NCBI RefSeq assembly: GCF_041499725.1
Contig: NZ_JBGQKW010000002.1
Location: 37,643 to 101,642 of the forward strand
DNA: 64,000 nt
Reading direction: 5' to 3'
Source of the DNA: Sulfuricaulis sp.
GTDB taxonomy: Bacteria; Pseudomonadota; Gammaproteobacteria; Acidiferrobacterales; Sulfurifustaceae
The notes under the pieces were generated by a model. That model searched no databases and was not told the origin of the DNA. It saw only the letters and a program-made list of their open reading frames with translations. Shown here in pieces: positions 18,833 through 23,610 of the stretch. The position numbers and the translations under genes were made by a program. Numbering within the stretch: position 1 is the first letter of the stretch; each line of letters begins with the position of its first letter.

Positions 18833-18860
18833 AAATTAATCTCCAAACCTTTTTCCTGCC

Positions 18861-18886
18861 GCTACATCAGCATTTGCTGATGTAGC
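18861..18886. terminator. Perfect 12-bp hairpin after RDD (probable terminator)
   Basis: GCTACATCAGCA-TT-TGCTGATGTAGC followed by TTTATT. Confidence 0.5.
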
Positions 18887-19077
18887 TTTATTCCTCTCTG
18901 TTATTTGACAAGTATCAAGGATACTGCTGAAATAAATATTCAGAACAATTAACGCGGATATAAAAAGAAGGCATCAGTAAGCAATAACAAAACCAACCAG
19001 CACTTTCGTTCCTCGCTTAAGAGATTCTAAAAAAGCGGCGACACCACCGCAGCGGGGAGCGGGCAGGAGGAAGAAAA

Positions 19078-22000
19078 ATGTTCTTCATGGGACATCTATC
19101 GGCCTTTTCACCCTCAACACCACGGAAATTATTGCGCCCGATATCACGCGGCCTATATATCCTACTGTTGTCCGGCCTGTTGATTCCGTCCACCACTTTG
19201 GCTGACCCGCCACACTTGCCTAATGAATACTTCAACACCTCTGACGCGGCAAAAGCCGCGTGTGTGGCTAAACTGCCCTGGTATCAAGCGAACTACGGTT
19301 GGCCGAATGGATATAGTTGCGTGTGGACCCACGAGGGAAACTTCGCTGCGAAGTGGGCTGTATGGGATGACATTTTGAATGGTCCCACTCTGACTGCCTT
19401 ATTTAAGGCTATCTATCCGATAAGGCAATGTCCGCCTACTCAGAATTATGTTGCCCCTGGCGTCTGTACCATCCCACCGCCGAATAAAATCAATGCCTGC
19501 TCCGGCGATGCGATGAAGGGCAATCCCTGCAATGCGGCTACAGGCAACAAATTCCAAAGCGAGGTCGATCTGACGAGCGTTGATGGCGGTATTCCGATTA
19601 TCCGCTACTACAACAGCCAGCTTATGGTCGACGTCGGGTTTGGCGTCGGTTGGACCTCCTCGATATTGGGTAAGCGTCTTTACATCAACCCCACCACCGT
19701 ACAGGTAATGCGTGCAGACGGGCGCGGGGAGTCTTTCGTCTGCAACGGCGGTGCTTGCCAAGGCGATGCGGATACCCAGATCGCACTCACTCAGGATGCT
19801 AACGGCTACACCCTCACGATGGATAAGGACGGGGCGGTTGAGCGTTACGACACCGCCGGCAAGCTTGTCACCGAGACCGACCGCACCGGCAGAACCACAA
19901 GCTACAGTTACGACTACAGTTACGATACGTCTGGCCGGCTCGCCACCGTCACCGGCCCGTTTGGCCACCGCCTGACCTTGAGCTATGACGCAAACAACCA
20001 CATTTACCAAATTAATGGTGGTGCTCAATTCCCCCGCTATACGTACGATGCCAACAACAATCTAACGCGCGTCACTTACTACCCCGGCATGGGAACGATC
20101 TATCACTACGAGAATACTTCCTTTCCCCAGAATCTCACCGGCATTTCGTACTTCTACGCATCGATCACCTTCCGCTATGCCACCTACGCCTACGACGCAT
20201 TGGGCAAGGCGGTTTCGACGGAACATGCCTCTGGCGCGGAGCGGACCGCCTTCAGCTATGACTCGCCGAGCCAAACTACAGTCACCGACGCTGCCAATAC
20301 GCAAGAAGTCATGACTTTTGCCTCCAATCTTGGGGCAAAGGCACTCGTCTCAAAGGTGAATCAGAGTGACGGCAAGAGCGCGGTGCAGACCTTCGACGCC
20401 AATAACAACTTAACTTGCAAAAAGGACGAAGAAGGCAAGGTCACGACGTATACGTATAGCAGTACAAACCAAAAGCTCTCGATGACCGAAGGATTGGCGG
20501 GAACGTGTGATGCGCCCACGACGACGAGCGCGACCCGCACCACAACGTATAGTTATTTGTCCCCTACCCTCGATCTGCCCACGGTAATCCAGAGCCCGAG
20601 CGTCTACAGCGGACAAAACAAGACCACCACGATAACTTACGGCGATGCCGCGCATCCCACGCTTCCGACAATGATTATGCAGAGCGGCTTTACACCCAGC
20701 GCCACACCGGTCTCACGCAGCGTGGGGCTTACCTATAACAGCACTGGTCAAATCACATCGATCGATGGGCCACGCACGGATGTCAATGATGTCACGACCC
20801 TGGCCTACTACGACTGCGCCACGGCGGGAGCCTGCGGGCAGTTGCGCAGCATCACCAACGCTTTGGGACAGGTGACTACCTTCGACAGTTACGATGCGTA
20901 CGGCAAGCTATTGCAGATGACCGACGCCAACGGGTTACGTACCAGCTACGTTTACAGTCTTGCATACGACTATCTGGCCCGGGTAACTCAGATTACCCAA
21001 ACACCGCCGACAGGCAGCACGCGAACCACCCAATATCGATATCACCAGGCAGGCGGTGATCTGTTAACGGTATACTTCCCCGACGGCCGCACGCTCAGCT
21101 ACACATACAATGCCGCCCGCCAGCTCACGCGAGTGACCGATAACTTCAACAATTACGTTGCCTACAGCTATGATATTAAGGGCAACCGCATCAGCGAATA
21201 CACTTACAACTCCTCGAACGTCCTGACGCGCCAGATCGATCTCGCGTACGACATCAGAAACCACCTCTCATCGATTAACGCGGCGGGCTCGCTCACGCAG
21301 CAGATAAACGATGCCGTGGGCAACCTTACTCAACAAACCGATCCGAACAACAATCCCCCGTCGACAAACAGCTTCGATGCGCTAAATCGACTCATACAGA
21401 CGCTCAACAGCCTGGGCGGTACCACCAGTTACGCCTACGACCCGAACGACCGGCTGCAACAAGTCGTCGCGCCAAACAACGCCACGACCCAGTACCAATA
21501 CGACGATCTCGGCAATCTCCTCCAGGAAATCTCCGCGGACCGCGGCACCACGGTTTATACGTACGATAACGCCGGCAACGTTACGACCGTCTCCGACGCG
21601 AGAAGCATCCCGATATCCTACACCTACGATGCGCTCAACCGGGTCACGAGCATCGACTACCCCGGGACCACGGAAGATGTTACCTACACCTACGACAACT
21701 GCACCGCCGGCATCGGCCGGCTGTGCCAGGTCGCGGATGCCAGTGGCACCACGCAGTACAGCTACGATGCCTTTGGCAACGTCCTCACCCAGAGCAAGAC
21801 GGAGTTGGGCATCGTCTATACCACCAGCTACACCTACGATGCCTCAGACCGGATCAAGACGATCACTTACCCCGACAACCGCCTCGTGACCTATGCACGA
21901 AACGGCTTAGGGCAAATCACGTCTGTCAGCGCCACGGTGAGCGGCGTGGCCAAAACGCTCGCCAGCGCGCGGACCTACCGCGCGGATGGGTTACTGCTTA

Positions 22001-23223
22001 CCCAAAGCTACGGCAACGGGCTCAACGAGACCCGCACCTACGACCTGCAAGGCCGGCTTACGAATCAGTCCCTGGGAACCGCTGATACGCGGGTGTACGG
22101 TTATGACGCCAACGGCAACGTCACCAGCCGGCAGGGCCTCTTCCAGACGGGGAGTTACGGCTACGACGCGCTCGATCGGTTAATCCAAGACAGCATCACC
22201 TCGATTCCGGCGAGTACGGTAAACCTCGGCTACGACCCAAATGGGAATCGGACGAGCGATAGCAGTGGGAGCTATATCTACCTCAGCGCCTCGAACCGCC
22301 TGTCGCAATATCATGGCCAGACGATCACCCTGGACGCCGCGGGCAACACCGTGAGCGACGGGACGTACACCTACGCCTACAACAATGCCGGAGAGTTACA
22401 GTCTGTGAGCCAAGGCGCCGCCCTGGGGAGTTATGTTTACAACCACCTGCGCCAGCGTACTCGCAAGACCACCGCCTCGGGTACCACGGTCTACCACTAC
22501 GACATCCGCGGTAATCTGATCCTGGAGACAAGCTCGACCGGCACCTCGCAGGTTGCCTACATGTGGGCGGATACCCAACCGTTGGCGCAGATCACGAAGA
22601 GTGGCGGTACCGATACGCTGTCGTACTTGCATGCCGATCATGAAGGCACGCCGCGGCTGGCGACGAGCGCCACGAAGGCCGTGGTGTGGCGCTGGGAGGG
22701 AAATGCATTTGGGGATACCTCACCGACGGGGAGTGTGACGGTGAATCTGCGGTATGCGGGGATGTATGCGGATCAGGAGACTGGGTTGTACTATGTCTGG
22801 AATCGCTACTACGATCCTAAGACCGGTCGGTGGATCACTTCCGATCCCATCGGCTTAGCAGGCGGACTCAACACCTACGCGTATGTGGTGAATAATCCGT
22901 TAAGGTGGACGGATCCAGAGGGGACAGCAATCTGGGCGGTTCCGTTCGGTTGGAACTCGCCTAACGGTAACGTTAGACCAGGATTTAGCCTCCAAAAGCC
23001 GGGGTGTGATGTTGATGGTTCTGTCGGCTCTTGGATGAACAGAAAACCTTGCATTAGGAAGTGTTGTGATGAACATGATGATTGCTACAAAAAGTATGGG
23101 TGCAATGCATCCTCATGGAGAGGTAGACTCTATAGTTCATGCGATATCTGCAATATGAAAGTGATGTGGTGCATAATTACCGCTGATACGTCCGACAACG
23201 GGTGCAGCTGCACGAAGCAATAG
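19078..23223 (+). CDS. Rhs/YD-repeat polymorphic toxin with signal peptide, DUF6531-like domain and Cys-rich PLA2-like C-terminal tip
   Basis: GNPCNAATGNKFQ (DUF6531-like), many YxYD repeats, RYYDP..GRW...DPIGLAGGLNTYAYVVNNPLRWTDPEG core end; tip CCDEHDDCY. Confidence 0.92.
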   Translation: MFFMGHLSAFSPSTPRKLLRPISRGLYILLLSGLLIPSTTLADPPHLPNEYFNTSDAAKAACVAKLPWYQANYGWPNGYSCVWTHEGNFAAKWAVWDDILNGPTLTALFKAIYPIRQCPPTQNYVAPGVCTIPPPNKINACSGDAMKGNPCNAATGNKFQSEVDLTSVDGGIPIIRYYNSQLMVDVGFGVGWTSSILGKRLYINPTTVQVMRADGRGESFVCNGGACQGDADTQIALTQDANGYTLTMDKDGAVERYDTAGKLVTETDRTGRTTSYSYDYSYDTSGRLATVTGPFGHRLTLSYDANNHIYQINGGAQFPRYTYDANNNLTRVTYYPGMGTIYHYENTSFPQNLTGISYFYASITFRYATYAYDALGKAVSTEHASGAERTAFSYDSPSQTTVTDAANTQEVMTFASNLGAKALVSKVNQSDGKSAVQTFDANNNLTCKKDEEGKVTTYTYSSTNQKLSMTEGLAGTCDAPTTTSATRTTTYSYLSPTLDLPTVIQSPSVYSGQNKTTTITYGDAAHPTLPTMIMQSGFTPSATPVSRSVGLTYNSTGQITSIDGPRTDVNDVTTLAYYDCATAGACGQLRSITNALGQVTTFDSYDAYGKLLQMTDANGLRTSYVYSLAYDYLARVTQITQTPPTGSTRTTQYRYHQAGGDLLTVYFPDGRTLSYTYNAARQLTRVTDNFNNYVAYSYDIKGNRISEYTYNSSNVLTRQIDLAYDIRNHLSSINAAGSLTQQINDAVGNLTQQTDPNNNPPSTNSFDALNRLIQTLNSLGGTTSYAYDPNDRLQQVVAPNNATTQYQYDDLGNLLQEISADRGTTVYTYDNAGNVTTVSDARSIPISYTYDALNRVTSIDYPGTTEDVTYTYDNCTAGIGRLCQVADASGTTQYSYDAFGNVLTQSKTELGIVYTTSYTYDASDRIKTITYPDNRLVTYARNGLGQITSVSATVSGVAKTLASARTYRADGLLLTQSYGNGLNETRTYDLQGRLTNQSLGTADTRVYGYDANGNVTSRQGLFQTGSYGYDALDRLIQDSITSIPASTVNLGYDPNGNRTSDSSGSYIYLSASNRLSQYHGQTITLDAAGNTVSDGTYTYAYNNAGELQSVSQGAALGSYVYNHLRQRTRKTTASGTTVYHYDIRGNLILETSSTGTSQVAYMWADTQPLAQITKSGGTDTLSYLHADHEGTPRLATSATKAVVWRWEGNAFGDTSPTGSVTVNLRYAGMYADQETGLYYVWNRYYDPKTGRWITSDPIGLAGGLNTYAYVVNNPLRWTDPEGTAIWAVPFGWNSPNGNVRPGFSLQKPGCDVDGSVGSWMNRKPCIRKCCDEHDDCYKKYGCNASSWRGRLYSSCDICNMKVMWCIITADTSDNGCSCTKQ

Positions 23224-23249
23224 ACATATCGATCAAGGGGCACGTTTTG

Positions 23250-23510
23250 ATGAAACGTAAATCTTGGCTTTGGTGGGTCACCACTGTTGGCGCGATCGCA
23301 ACTGTCTCAGGTTACTTAGGACTTTTGATCGTTGAACAGGTATATCCTGAAAGTAATCTACTCGGTGGCTGGGCCCTGATATTAGGGCCGATTTTTTGGA
23401 CAGGTCTGCTTTTGCTGATCGTTGCTGCTGTTGGTGGGACCATCAGTTTCGTTCGGTCAACGCGTAGTGGTGAGGGCCCTAAGTCCGATGACGGTTGGGG
23501 AAGAAAATAG
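23250..23510 (+). CDS. Small two-TM protein, putative Rhs immunity protein
   Basis: 26 bp after the Rhs stop, AAGGGG RBS, two hydrophobic helices, lower GC like the toxin tip. Confidence 0.6.
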   Translation: MKRKSWLWWVTTVGAIATVSGYLGLLIVEQVYPESNLLGGWALILGPIFWTGLLLLIVAAVGGTISFVRSTRSGEGPKSDDGWGRK

Positions 23511-23610
23511 AAAGGGGTATTAAAGTATTAAAAGGGGCCAGGCTGAGGCATCCCCGTTTCCACGGACACCCCATCCGGGGTAGTTCAGACTGAGGTACAG
23601 ATAAAATCTG

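Follow-up and report, generated by a model that had tools for sequence, protein, structure and literature searches.

A Rhs polymorphic toxin with a disulfide-rich tip bearing a secretory phospholipase A2-like helix and a co-inherited candidate membrane immunity gene

Within the window, the 64,000-nucleotide stretch of Sulfuricaulis sp. DNA analysed here, an rhs gene and the small gene that follows it are best explained as a two-gene polymorphic-toxin module inserted amid housekeeping genes. The C-terminal tip of the Rhs protein is one member of a toxin family that recurs at protein C-termini and was previously without annotation, and the tip is inherited together with the downstream gene independently of the Rhs shell. 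As a whole explanation we favour, on balance, a Sec-exported Rhs protein with a phospholipase A2 (PLA2)-like tip and a membrane immunity protein. Judged from its sequence, the tip probably has PLA2 activity, and its assignment to the secretory PLA2s (sPLA2s) is plausible but weak.

Locus layout and the Rhs carrier

The features of the module, with the basis of each in brackets, are as follows.
18861..18886, + strand: terminator-like hairpin 3' of the upstream RDD-family gene (consensus scan)
19062..19068, + strand: ribosome-binding site GGAGGAA of the long form of rhs, inside GCAGGAGGAAGAAAAATG (sequence reading)
19078..23223, + strand: rhs gene, 1381-aa Rhs/YD-repeat polymorphic toxin precursor (Pfam and TIGRFAM-type matches)
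19078..19203, + strand: predicted Sec signal peptide, aa 1-42 (sequence reading, heuristic)
19204..19518, + strand: N-terminal 105-aa Cys-containing domain (~59% identical in the G002 orthologue)
19519..19737, + strand: DUF6531, N-terminal plug region of the Rhs shell, aa 148-220 (Pfam PF20148, E=5.6e-12)
19738..22704, + strand: RHS/YD-repeat shell, or cocoon (22 RHS_repeat and 13 YD_repeat_2x stretches)
22705..22923, + strand: Rhs-associated core, aa 1210-1282, last residues PLRWTDPEG (TIGR03696)
22924..23220, + strand: disulfide-rich 99-aa toxin tip with an sPLA2-like active-site helix (homologues, AF2, Foldseek)
23062..23088, + strand: CCDEHDDCY, putative catalytic His-Asp helix, tip C47, C48, H51, D52, C54 and Y55 (conservation, hhalign)
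23140..23172, + strand: CDICNMKVMWC, partner helix, tip C73, C76, N77 and C83 (conservation, hhalign)
23250..23510, + strand: candidate immunity gene, product of 86 aa with two TM helices in the inner membrane (co-inheritance with the tip)

The rhs ORF, the DPEG motif, the 99-aa tip with 11 Cys and the 86-aa two-TM ORF all lie where the first-pass annotation had placed them, and its identification of a Rhs polymorphic toxin is confirmed by the matches to DUF6531, Pfam RHS_repeat (E=3.9e-62, 22 stretches) and TIGR03696 Rhs_assc_core (E=5.6e-26). The module lies between the RDD-family gene and lptG/lptF, and the hairpin at 18861..18886 sets off the rhs-immunity pair as its own unit. The public gene call (P0004, 1236 aa) starts at Met146 of this product, so that the signal peptide is lost; we favour the long form because it has a good AGGAGG ribosome-binding site and its N-terminus is kept, at 59% identity, in the orthologue of the same-genus genome G002.

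The predicted signal peptide, a heuristic call, comprises a basic n-region, the hydrophobic stretch LYILLLSGLLIP and a TLA/DP cleavage site. It is kept in the G002 orthologue (MYFMRHLS...LLLSGLLIPSITLADPPHLP), and signal peptides also open other Rhs proteins of the same genus. The 105-aa domain behind it has no match in Pfam and is possibly a targeting or binding module. The core ends with DPEG at 22912-22923, where the boundary reads DPEGT compared with the canonical DPxGL; we read it as both the site of autoproteolysis and the joint at which recombination exchanges tips. The 1381-aa protein would be exported via Sec by its N-terminal signal peptide, with no T6SS firing; the YD-repeat shell would enclose the 99-aa C-terminal tip, and a cut at the DPEG boundary would free it. 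The first-pass comparison with the lipases Tle1-5, which implies a T6SS, did not hold: the source genome, which is 99.98% complete, lacks the T6SS marker TssC, and so do the 18 further genomes of the genus (19 in all).

The tip family, tip swapping and the downstream partners

The tip family comprises 271 clusters at 50% identity (E<=1e-3). Curated models of Pfam and NCBIfam match none of them, and the ten public members sampled carry no other name than "RHS repeat protein". In 137 of the 152 stretches that were scored, no more than 25 aa separate the domain from the C-terminus, and a Rhs core usually precedes it. The 11 Cys of the tip occupy tip positions 28, 43, 47, 48, 54, 60, 73, 76, 83, 93 and 95, and eight Cys are essentially invariant among 120 aligned members. 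His51, Tyr or Phe at position 55, C76 and C83 are each found in 120/120 of these members and Asp52 in 118/120, while position 77 holds Asn in 117 members and Asp in the other 3. Six-frame translation of the source genome yields 5.68 million residues and just one match to the pattern CC..HD.C[YF]; this single occurrence, together with the invariance over 120 aligned homologues, indicates that the CCxxHDxCY motif is not a product of chance. The AF2 model of the tip (pLDDT 84) is all-alpha with two long helices, and the tip is hydrophilic, without an amphipathic or glycine-zipper segment. The family would share a small all-helical core with four to five disulfide cross-links, in which one helix would bear the sPLA2 active-site pattern CCxxHDxCY and the partner helix the pattern C-N......C. 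A literature search found no published activity for any member.

The tip is polymorphic and swappable, as had been proposed: the shell of G002 keeps 76% identity as far as residue 1287 and then continues into an unrelated tip with a different immunity gene, and the shell matches to G002, G025 and G003 end at residues 1287-1288. Between the window and locus L004, identity rises at the core/tip boundary from 50% in the shell to 84% in the tip, and it reaches 90% in the immunity gene. The pairing is repeated in L022/L023, whose immunity gene is 76% identical; across the co-inheriting loci, the tips share 75-84% and the immunity genes 76-90% identity, but the shells only ~50%. An orphan immunity homologue (70% identity) stands in the L020/L021 contig, which has no toxin. 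Co-inheritance with the tip plus an orphan copy is the pattern expected of a cognate immunity gene, and the earlier call of a membrane immunity gene is supported. The GC content is 47.1% in the tip and ranges over 47-49% across tip and immunity gene, compared with 59.5% in the genome.

These observations also bear on the target. A lipase directed against eukaryotic grazers or hosts, with the downstream gene merely guarding the producer during periplasmic passage of the Rhs protein, would suit the eukaryotic type of the active-site motif, the predicted Sec export, which could release the protein into the medium, and a genome with no contact-dependent injection system. However, a toxin-free orphan immunity gene is sensible only as defence against a neighbour's toxin, and the orphan CT/immunity arrays that adjoin related Rhs genes are a signature of bacterial conflict. 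We consider such a target improbable, and the grazers named in the first-pass annotation give way to inter-bacterial conflict.

The 86-aa ORF (MKRK...) is encoded 27 nt downstream of rhs, and its product matches no Pfam family. Its hydrophobic spans lie at approximately residues 11-29 and 41-64 (hydropathy scan, 90%-identical homologue), and basic residues at either terminus predict that both termini face inwards (N-in/C-in) and that a short loop, EQVYPESNLLGG, reaches into the periplasm. The protein would sit in the inner membrane of the producer and from there most likely inhibit the tip at the surface of the membrane, a mode of immunity that we infer. Downstream of the tip, 16 of the examined family loci had a readable region: a lipoprotein gene comes next in seven of them, a gene for a small multi-TM protein in nine, and a gene for a cytoplasmic partner in none (0/16). 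Such partners point to action in the cell envelope. Since CxxC and CCxxH patterns are able to chelate Zn and nucleases are common among Rhs tips, a zinc-binding Cys/His tip acting in the target cytoplasm could be envisaged, e.g., a small nuclease or nucleic-acid-binding toxin. We regard this as highly improbable, because the examined partners are all membrane proteins or lipoproteins, the carrier is predicted to be Sec-exported in a genome with no injection system, disulfides suit a helical core of 70 residues that has eight invariant Cys, and no nuclease family was matched in Pfam/NCBIfam-type searches.

The sPLA2 assignment

The source tip matched nothing in Pfam even at E<=10. Among 52 tip-family members, sub-threshold matches were obtained to PF00068 in 8 and to PF06951 in 7, with a best score of 22.4 bits against a cut-off of 34; the PF06951 alignments span the Cys28 loop to the second helix. 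PF09056 matched 0/52, even at E<=10. Sequence and profile searches of the PDB with the tip reached sPLA2s at E 6-10 only. A Foldseek search of 350,542 PDB chains with the AF2 tip model gave sPLA2s as 17 of its 18 matches, all of them weak (E 1.5-9, TM 0.33-0.41, rmsd 5-12 Å), and the 1kp4, 1lwb and 4aup chains were found in neither the Foldseek nor the profile PDB searches. The fold comparison that had been suggested thus leans to sPLA2 in its neighbours, but with every match at E>1.

We compared the tip family with four non-venom sPLA2s by hhalign, using column shuffles as the control. The comparison gave a probability of 79.6% and a score of 34.3, compared with 10.8 +/- 2.3 for the shuffles, and set CCDEHDDCY on CCQTHDNCY of pancreatic sPLA2. 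Without the catalytic helix the score dropped to 14.3, inside the shuffle range; hence, the measurable sPLA2 similarity is that of one 15-residue helix. The partner helix, whose alignment is not significant alone, has C76-N77...C83 spaced as sPLA2 C98-D99...C105, with Asn at the Asp99-aligned position in 117/120 members. The canonical YGCYCGxGG Ca2+ loop is missing from the tip. The eukaryote-style PLA2 warhead of the first-pass annotation is therefore retained in part: the CCxxHDxCY helix and the lean of Foldseek and hhalign to sPLA2 argue for it, whereas the sub-threshold scores, the one-helix signal and the change of Asp99 to Asn argue against it.

A disulfide-stabilised envelope toxin other than a phospholipase, such as a membrane-perturbing/ionophore-like peptide or an enzyme that hydrolyses some other envelope substrate, would account for the restriction of the similarity to one helix, for Pfam, PDB and Foldseek scores short of significance and for Asn at the Asp99 equivalent; the CCxxHDxCY helix would then be a convergence on sPLA2, or a structural or metal-binding site. 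Pore-forming/ionophore toxins (colicin, T6SS pore-formers) are more typical partners of small multi-TM immunity proteins than lipases are, and the family's small multi-TM partners resemble immunity to membrane-depolarising toxins. However, the hydrophilic tip has no segment of the amphipathic or glycine-zipper kind, the invariant His, Asp, Tyr and Asn/Asp are in the geometry to be expected for an sPLA2 catalytic network, the Foldseek neighbours are sPLA2s, and about half of the family has soluble periplasmic lipoproteins as partners, a kind of protein also found among the Tli proteins of Tle lipases, such as Tli3 (PMC9860674). We consider a non-phospholipase toxin rather unlikely. For the favoured PLA2-like tip, we infer the lipase chemistry, Ca2+ dependence and site of action as follows: once in the periplasm of a diderm target bacterium, the tip would fold and oxidise, and there it would attack membrane phospholipids as a His/Asp phospholipase that depends on Ca2+.

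Comparison with known systems

A PLA2-fold Rhs tip is not unprecedented, because Zhang, de Souza, Anantharaman, Iyer & Aravind predicted in 2012 a Tox-PLA2 of the prokaryotic 1kp4 (group XIV) type with RHS repeats and signal-peptide secretion (PMC3482391). In both cases a predicted PLA2-fold domain forms the C-terminus of RHS-repeat proteins; the Tox-PLA2 carrier was labelled 'T2SS' (signal-peptide) secretion, and the rhs product likewise has a predicted signal peptide. Tox-PLA2/PF09056 and the tip also share an Asp-x(1-2)-Cys-[ST] element before the catalytic His helix. In contrast, the tip has CCxxHDxCY followed by CN.SSW instead of the CxRHDFGYxN of PF09056/group XIV, and its family has 8-11 Cys instead of 4. 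An immunity family was not given for Tox-PLA2 by Zhang et al. (PMC3482391), whereas two partner classes are found here.

Compared with the eukaryotic sPLA2s (PF00068 groups I/II/V/X; PF06951 group XII), the tip has an identical active-site helix spacing, C-C-x-x-H-D-x-C-Y, and a second helix C-[N/D] with a Cys seven residues on, as in C98-D99...C105; both are small, all-helical, disulfide-rich and extracytoplasmic. The differences are that the tip has Asn for Asp99 and lacks the calcium loop, the N-terminal interfacial helix and the beta-wing, that its domain has ~70 residues instead of ~120, and that it is fused to a Rhs shell and partnered by an immunity gene. The Tle1-5/Tli systems resemble the proposed module as antibacterial lipases acting from the periplasm with envelope-located immunity, the lipoprotein partner occurring in about half of the tip family, but they are free-standing T6SS effectors, whereas the tip is part of a Rhs protein in a genome without T6SS and, on sequence reading, has no GxSxG or HxKxxxxD motif. 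Bacillus subtilis WapA is likewise built as a YD-repeat carrier with a signal peptide, ends in a polymorphic toxin, has its immunity gene next to it and is T6SS-independent; its tips are tRNases. The WapA host is monoderm, whereas the source here is diderm, since LptF/LptG are present, so that the proposed delivery route after Sec export would include an extra outer-membrane crossing step. The weapon is of a known type, a Rhs toxin with a predicted PLA2 tip, and the module would be a variant with a eukaryote-sPLA2-like helix and a co-inherited two-TM gene.

The rhs gene, its carrier protein and the predicted route of secretion

The rhs open reading frame encodes a protein that both Pfam and NCBIfam place among the Rhs/YD proteins. 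The first-pass annotation had described an Rhs ORF with a DPEG motif, a Cys-rich tip and a two-TM ORF behind it, and this description proved accurate in its coordinates. The features are as follows.

19078-23223, + strand: rhs ORF, 1381 aa
aa 148-220 of the Rhs protein: DUF6531 (Pfam)
aa 1210-1282 of the Rhs protein: Rhs-associated core (TIGR03696, 90.8 bits vs a cut-off of 32.5)
22912-22923, + strand: DPEG of the core-end boundary PLRWTDPEG-T, with Thr in place of the usual Leu
22924-23220, + strand: tip, the 99 residues after DPEG, with 11 Cys
23062-23088, + strand: CCDEHDDCY, putative active-site helix of the tip
23140-23172, + strand: CDICNMKVMWC, in the tip
23250-23510, + strand: candidate immunity ORF, 86 aa, two hydrophobic spans, 27 nt past the rhs stop

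The RHS/YD repeats are extensive, with 22 stretches matched by PF05593 (RHS_repeat, E=3.9e-62) and 13 by TIGR01643. The ATG at 19078 is preceded by an AGGAGG ribosome-binding site and begins a predicted Sec signal peptide, with a basic n-region, LYILLLSGLLIP and cleavage between TLA and DP. The public gene call, 1236 aa starting at Met146, is without this signal peptide and the N-terminal domain (window 19078-19515). Because of the ribosome-binding site, and because the N-terminus (MYFMRHLS...LLLSGLLIPSITLADPPHLP) is conserved in the orthologue of G002, another genome of the genus, with 59% identity over aa 1-147 and 76% over residues 1-1287, the 1381-aa long form is the better gene call. Signal peptides also start other Rhs proteins of the genus. 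Between the signal peptide and DUF6531 lies a Cys-containing domain of 105 aa (window 19204-19518), 59% conserved in G002 and without a Pfam match, which may be a targeting or binding module. A word-indexed homologue search limited to Rhs-sized proteins returned the window Rhs itself only.

We considered whether the window Rhs is a T6SS effector and rejected this reading, since neither its own 99.98%-complete genome nor any of the 18 others of the genus has TssC, the T6SS sheath protein (PF05943); Pfam found no PAAR domain in the window Rhs. Rhs relatives are encoded by 13 of these 18 genomes, many of them with signal peptides and with orphan Rhs C-termini in arrays. The lack of TssC, together with the signal-peptide Rhs proteins, points to Sec-dependent, T6SS-independent Rhs toxins in this genus. 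A genus with many signal-peptide Rhs proteins and orphan tip arrays, and with no T6SS, is a place to test the delivery of Sec-exported Rhs proteins in diderms.

The tip family and its likeness to secreted phospholipases A2

Searched exhaustively by phmmer with the tip, 1.84 billion representative proteins yielded 271 proteins at E<=1e-3, of which 36 reach E<=1e-10. The top match, P0005, was spurious, a protein with a 23-fold Cys-containing repeat, and was left out. The domain lies 25 residues or fewer from the C-terminus in 137 of the 152 scored stretches, usually preceded by a DPxG Rhs boundary, and the longest members are Rhs proteins of 1286-1818 aa, three of them with signal-peptide-like N-termini. 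The only public name in ten sampled clusters is 'RHS repeat(-associated) protein', and no Pfam or NCBIfam model matches the window tip, even at E<=10. The family is sporadic: of 401 genomes sampled throughout the class, 3 carry it, and a motif pattern scan of GTDB genomes found it at 2 loci only; named examples include a Binatia MAG, a Nitrospirae MAG and Nitrospira defluvii.

The consensus of the family reads NGN..PGF..QD..C[TS].PG..G..N..PC...CC..HD.CY....CN.SSW(5-25)C..CN.....C, and the window tip belongs to a sub-type with Q-K-P-G-C-D in place of Q-D-x-x-C-[TS]. The conservation of single positions was counted in the 120-sequence family alignment.

Conservation of tip positions among 120 family sequences (tip numbering)
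H51, C48, C76, C83: 120/120
C28, C47, C54, C60, C73: 119/120
D52: 118/120
Q24: 117/120
Y55: 111 Tyr and 9 Phe
N77: 117 Asn and 3 Asp

In the whole genome, whose six-frame translation comprises 5.68 million residues, the strict motif CC..HD.C[YF] has a single occurrence; the tip motif is therefore no chance match. A divergent branch of the family (EPGCDG...CCD.HD.CYAK.GCN) was seen at three loci (L013 469-1677, L014 2224-3393 and L017 1-978), where each tip is joined to a non-Rhs N-terminal region of about 320 aa without a Pfam match and is followed by a 3-4-TM protein; the tip domain is therefore also found on a second, non-Rhs type of carrier.

The active-site helix gives the tip its likeness to secreted phospholipase A2 (sPLA2). 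The spacing of C47-C48-x-x-H51-D52-x-C54-Y55 is exactly that of C44-C45-x-x-H48-D49-x-C51-Y52 in group I/II sPLA2. The PROSITE PA2_HIS pattern of the sPLA2 active site, C-C-x-x-H-D-x-C, is matched by CCDEHDDC (23062-23085) and is conserved throughout the tip family. In the second long helix, C76-N77 is followed seven residues on by C83, like C98-D99 and C105 of sPLA2; the position of sPLA2 Asp99 is thus mostly Asn in the family, which has C-x-x-C-N vs the C-x-C-D of sPLA2.

Profile searches gave sub-threshold signals. When 52 members were scanned singly, eight matched Phospholip_A2_1 (PF00068; best E=0.002, below threshold) and another seven matched PLA2G12 (PF06951; best E=1.3e-4, 22.4 bits vs a gathering cut-off of 34), the latter alignments spanning the Cys28 loop through the second helix. 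The window tip itself matched neither model at E<=10, and none of the 52 members matched the prokaryotic PLA2 model PF09056 at E<=10. A phmmer search of PDB sequences with the tip gave no PLA2 match, and the tip profile reached sPLA2 in the PDB at E 6-10 only.

Folding the tip from its single sequence gave an unusable model (pLDDT 49). The AlphaFold2 model built with the family alignment (pLDDT 84, pTM 0.75) is all-helical, with helices at residues 33-40, 42-58, 62-66 and 72-86. The first-pass annotation had taken the tip for a phospholipase A2, to be checked by structural comparison, and the comparison supports this weakly: 17 of the 18 Foldseek matches among 350,542 PDB chains were group I sPLA2 from pancreas or cobra, but all were weak, with E 1.5-9, TMq 0.33-0.41 and rmsd 5-12 A. 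The viral structures of BFVD, searched in the same way, yielded no useful match, parvovirus VP1 appearing at E=6.8.

We also aligned the 120-sequence tip profile by hhalign with four non-venom sPLA2s, namely the bovine, porcine and human pancreatic enzymes and human group IIA. The probability was 79.6% and the score 34.3 over 71 aligned columns, and 60 column-shuffled controls averaged 10.8 +/- 2.3 and reached 17.9 at most. The alignment superposed the CC..HD.CY helices, as well as tip C76-N77...C83 on sPLA2 C98-D99...C105, and put the Cys28 loop (Q-D-x-x-C-[ST]-x-P-G-x-x-G in the family, Q-K-P-G-C-D-V-D-G-S-V-G in the window) on YGCYCGLGG, the glycine-rich Ca2+-binding loop of sPLA2, with low confidence. 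Once the catalytic helix (tip 44-58) was removed from the profile, the score fell to 14.3, no better than the shuffles; the measurable similarity to sPLA2 is therefore that of one helix, and the rest is merely compatible. Also against the sPLA2 reading, the tip has no canonical YGCYCGxGG loop, no N-terminal interfacial helix and no beta-wing, and Asn takes the place of Asp99. All sPLA2 signals of the tip are below the usual line of significance and the similarity is confined to one helix, and therefore we did not file the tip in PF00068 or PF06951. Nevertheless, we regard it as fairly probable that the tip works like sPLA2, with Ca2+-dependent sn-2 acyl hydrolase activity as the prediction.

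Partner genes and the variable locus next to lptG

The tip and the small membrane protein behind it are co-inherited in three independent contexts, with one further orphan copy of the membrane protein. On the metagenome contig L004, the identity is 84% for the tip and 90% (77/86 residues) for the protein behind it, with the Rhs shell just 50% identical over 408 aa. On contigs L022 and L023, the tip is ~75% identical (by eye), the shell is of a different variant, and P0156, encoded behind the tip, has 76% identity. The orphan copy is P0158, a homologue with 70% identity encoded in toxin-free surroundings (L020 7001-7264 and L021 1957-2220), near which tblastn found no tip; its gene is a putative orphan immunity gene. 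The island around P0158 carries HEPN-like, ABM, DUF4145 and IS110 transposase genes, with a Tn7 TnsA-like gene close by. On L023, downstream of the related tip-immunity pair, we also observed a classic orphan module (881-1852), whose parts are the end of an Rhs core (YYDPKLGRYLTSDPIGL...DPFGL), an unrelated ~140-aa tip and a gene that putatively encodes a membrane immunity protein.

The basic ends of the candidate immunity protein predict an N-in/C-in topology, in which the 12-residue periplasmic loop EQVYPESNLLGG is conserved in homologues. The GC content is 47.1% in the tip and 49.4% in the immunity gene, 56.7% in the shell and 59.5% in the genome.

Two types of partner follow the tips of the family. 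The first, which follows QDxxC[TS] tips, is a lipoprotein of 144-156 aa with the signature C..RYGF.ES.F.L..ESRLP.WF, in which C is the lipobox Cys (L002 589-1023, L003 771-, L008 1020-, L010 616-, L011 887-, L012 4277- and L028 about 5300-5798). No Pfam model exists for this conserved lipoprotein family, which may be a new family of immunity proteins or PLA2 inhibitors. The second is a small 2-4-TM protein (L004-L007, L009, L013-L017, L022 and L031), and a membrane protein comes next in all loci seen with the -PGCD- sub-type of tip. Every partner seen is envelope-located, which argues that the toxin acts in the periplasm or at the membrane rather than as a cytoplasmic nuclease.

The rhs gene lies between housekeeping genes: ccmF and an RDD-family gene upstream, the latter followed by a terminator-like hairpin, and convergent lptG and lptF and then pepA downstream. 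Comparison of window 18833-23610 with the corresponding loci of three genomes of the genus, L033 (G014), L034 (G006) and L035 (G002), indicates that the RDD-lptG interval is a variable hot spot, with Rhs genes in three genomes carrying three different tips. In G002 the 76%-identical shell is joined to an unrelated Gly-rich tip of ~160 aa, followed by a 4-TM partner and an orphan CT; the tip therefore varies between otherwise orthologous shells, the two proteins being unrelated past residue 1287. The lptG-flanked locus of G006 encodes an Rhs with a third tip, and in the complete genome G014 the interval encodes no Rhs but a thioredoxin-like protein and a PEP-CTERM protein of 640 aa. G018, of the same genus, encodes a diverged Rhs (50% identical) with a QDxxCT-type family tip and then the lipoprotein partner.

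A 58-aa ORF (MESGLHDHGARYYGPKTGRYISSDPIGLAGGLNTSLYARTNPVPF...) ~2.7 kb before the window (G000:C2:34836-34994, - strand; locus L019 1462-1638) is what is left of a decayed Rhs core end and lacks a recognisable tip or immunity gene. The Rhs-core fragment of 66 aa upstream of the window was rejected as a second module, as it is a decayed remnant.

Proposed mode of action and known systems

The mode of action we propose builds on established features: a signal-peptide Rhs shell, a swappable tip of a conserved family, co-inheritance of tip and immunity gene, and the lack of a T6SS. The tip would be released at the DPEG boundary and fold in the periplasm of the target with formation of four to five disulfides, for which the DsbA of the target would probably be needed; DsbA of the target is needed by some T6SS effectors, as reported (PMC5792426). 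Hydrolysis of phospholipids would depend on His51 and Asp52, the His being supported by Tyr55 and Asn77, and the immunity protein would block the tip at the surface of the inner membrane.

Tentatively, and with the balance somewhat against it, the tip family could be an unrecognised bacterial branch of the CCxxHDxCY sPLA2 superfamily (group I/II/XII-type), in which Asn stands in for Asp99 in the catalytic network and the calcium loop is a QD..C[ST] hybrid. It would serve as an interbacterial weapon of Sec-exported, T6SS-independent diderm Rhs proteins and be neutralised by two unrelated new immunity families, the two-TM protein and the lipoprotein. If so, the eukaryote-type sPLA2 fold would gain a root or sister group among bacterial polymorphic toxins, and there would be a tractable case of Rhs delivery without a known injection machine. 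If the tip is an active phospholipase, it would be a bacterial relative of the animal and plant sPLA2 active site, bearing on the origin of eukaryotic sPLA2s and venom PLA2s, and its partners, the two-TM membrane protein and the lipoprotein, would be two new immunity or PLA2-inhibitor families. If it is no lipase, there would still be a new toxin-immunity family, well defined though ordinary.

Our literature search, confined to papers outside subscription journals, found none that describes an Rhs toxin with a tip of the CCxxHDxCY type, or the immunity genes of such a tip. Two candidate relatives were rejected: TtaP/DUF1353, which is related to group XIV and free of Cys (PMC11525133), and the Lipocone/Min-Wnt superfamily, whose five-helix domains are not disulfide-rich (PMC12419801). 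Like Tox-PLA2, the other bacterial PLA2s in the papers checked, such as TtaP (PMC11525133), are of a group XIV-like type.

Compared with the characterised antibacterial lipases Tle1-5, the tip points to another chemistry, having neither the GxSxG of Tle1-4 nor the dual HxKxxxxD of Tle5. An active tip would be a new class of antibacterial lipase with ~70 core residues, distinct from Tle1-5 as well as from Tox-PLA2. The latter has been listed for RHS and filamentous toxins secreted by a signal peptide, without an immunity family (Zhang et al. 2012, PMC3482391), and is of the 1kp4/group XIV type, with the motifs DxC[ST] and CxxHxxxYxN. In contrast, the window tip reads H-D-D-C-Y-K-K-Y-G-C-N and not H-D-F-G-Y-R-N, and is thus set apart from Tox-PLA2 by the published motif.
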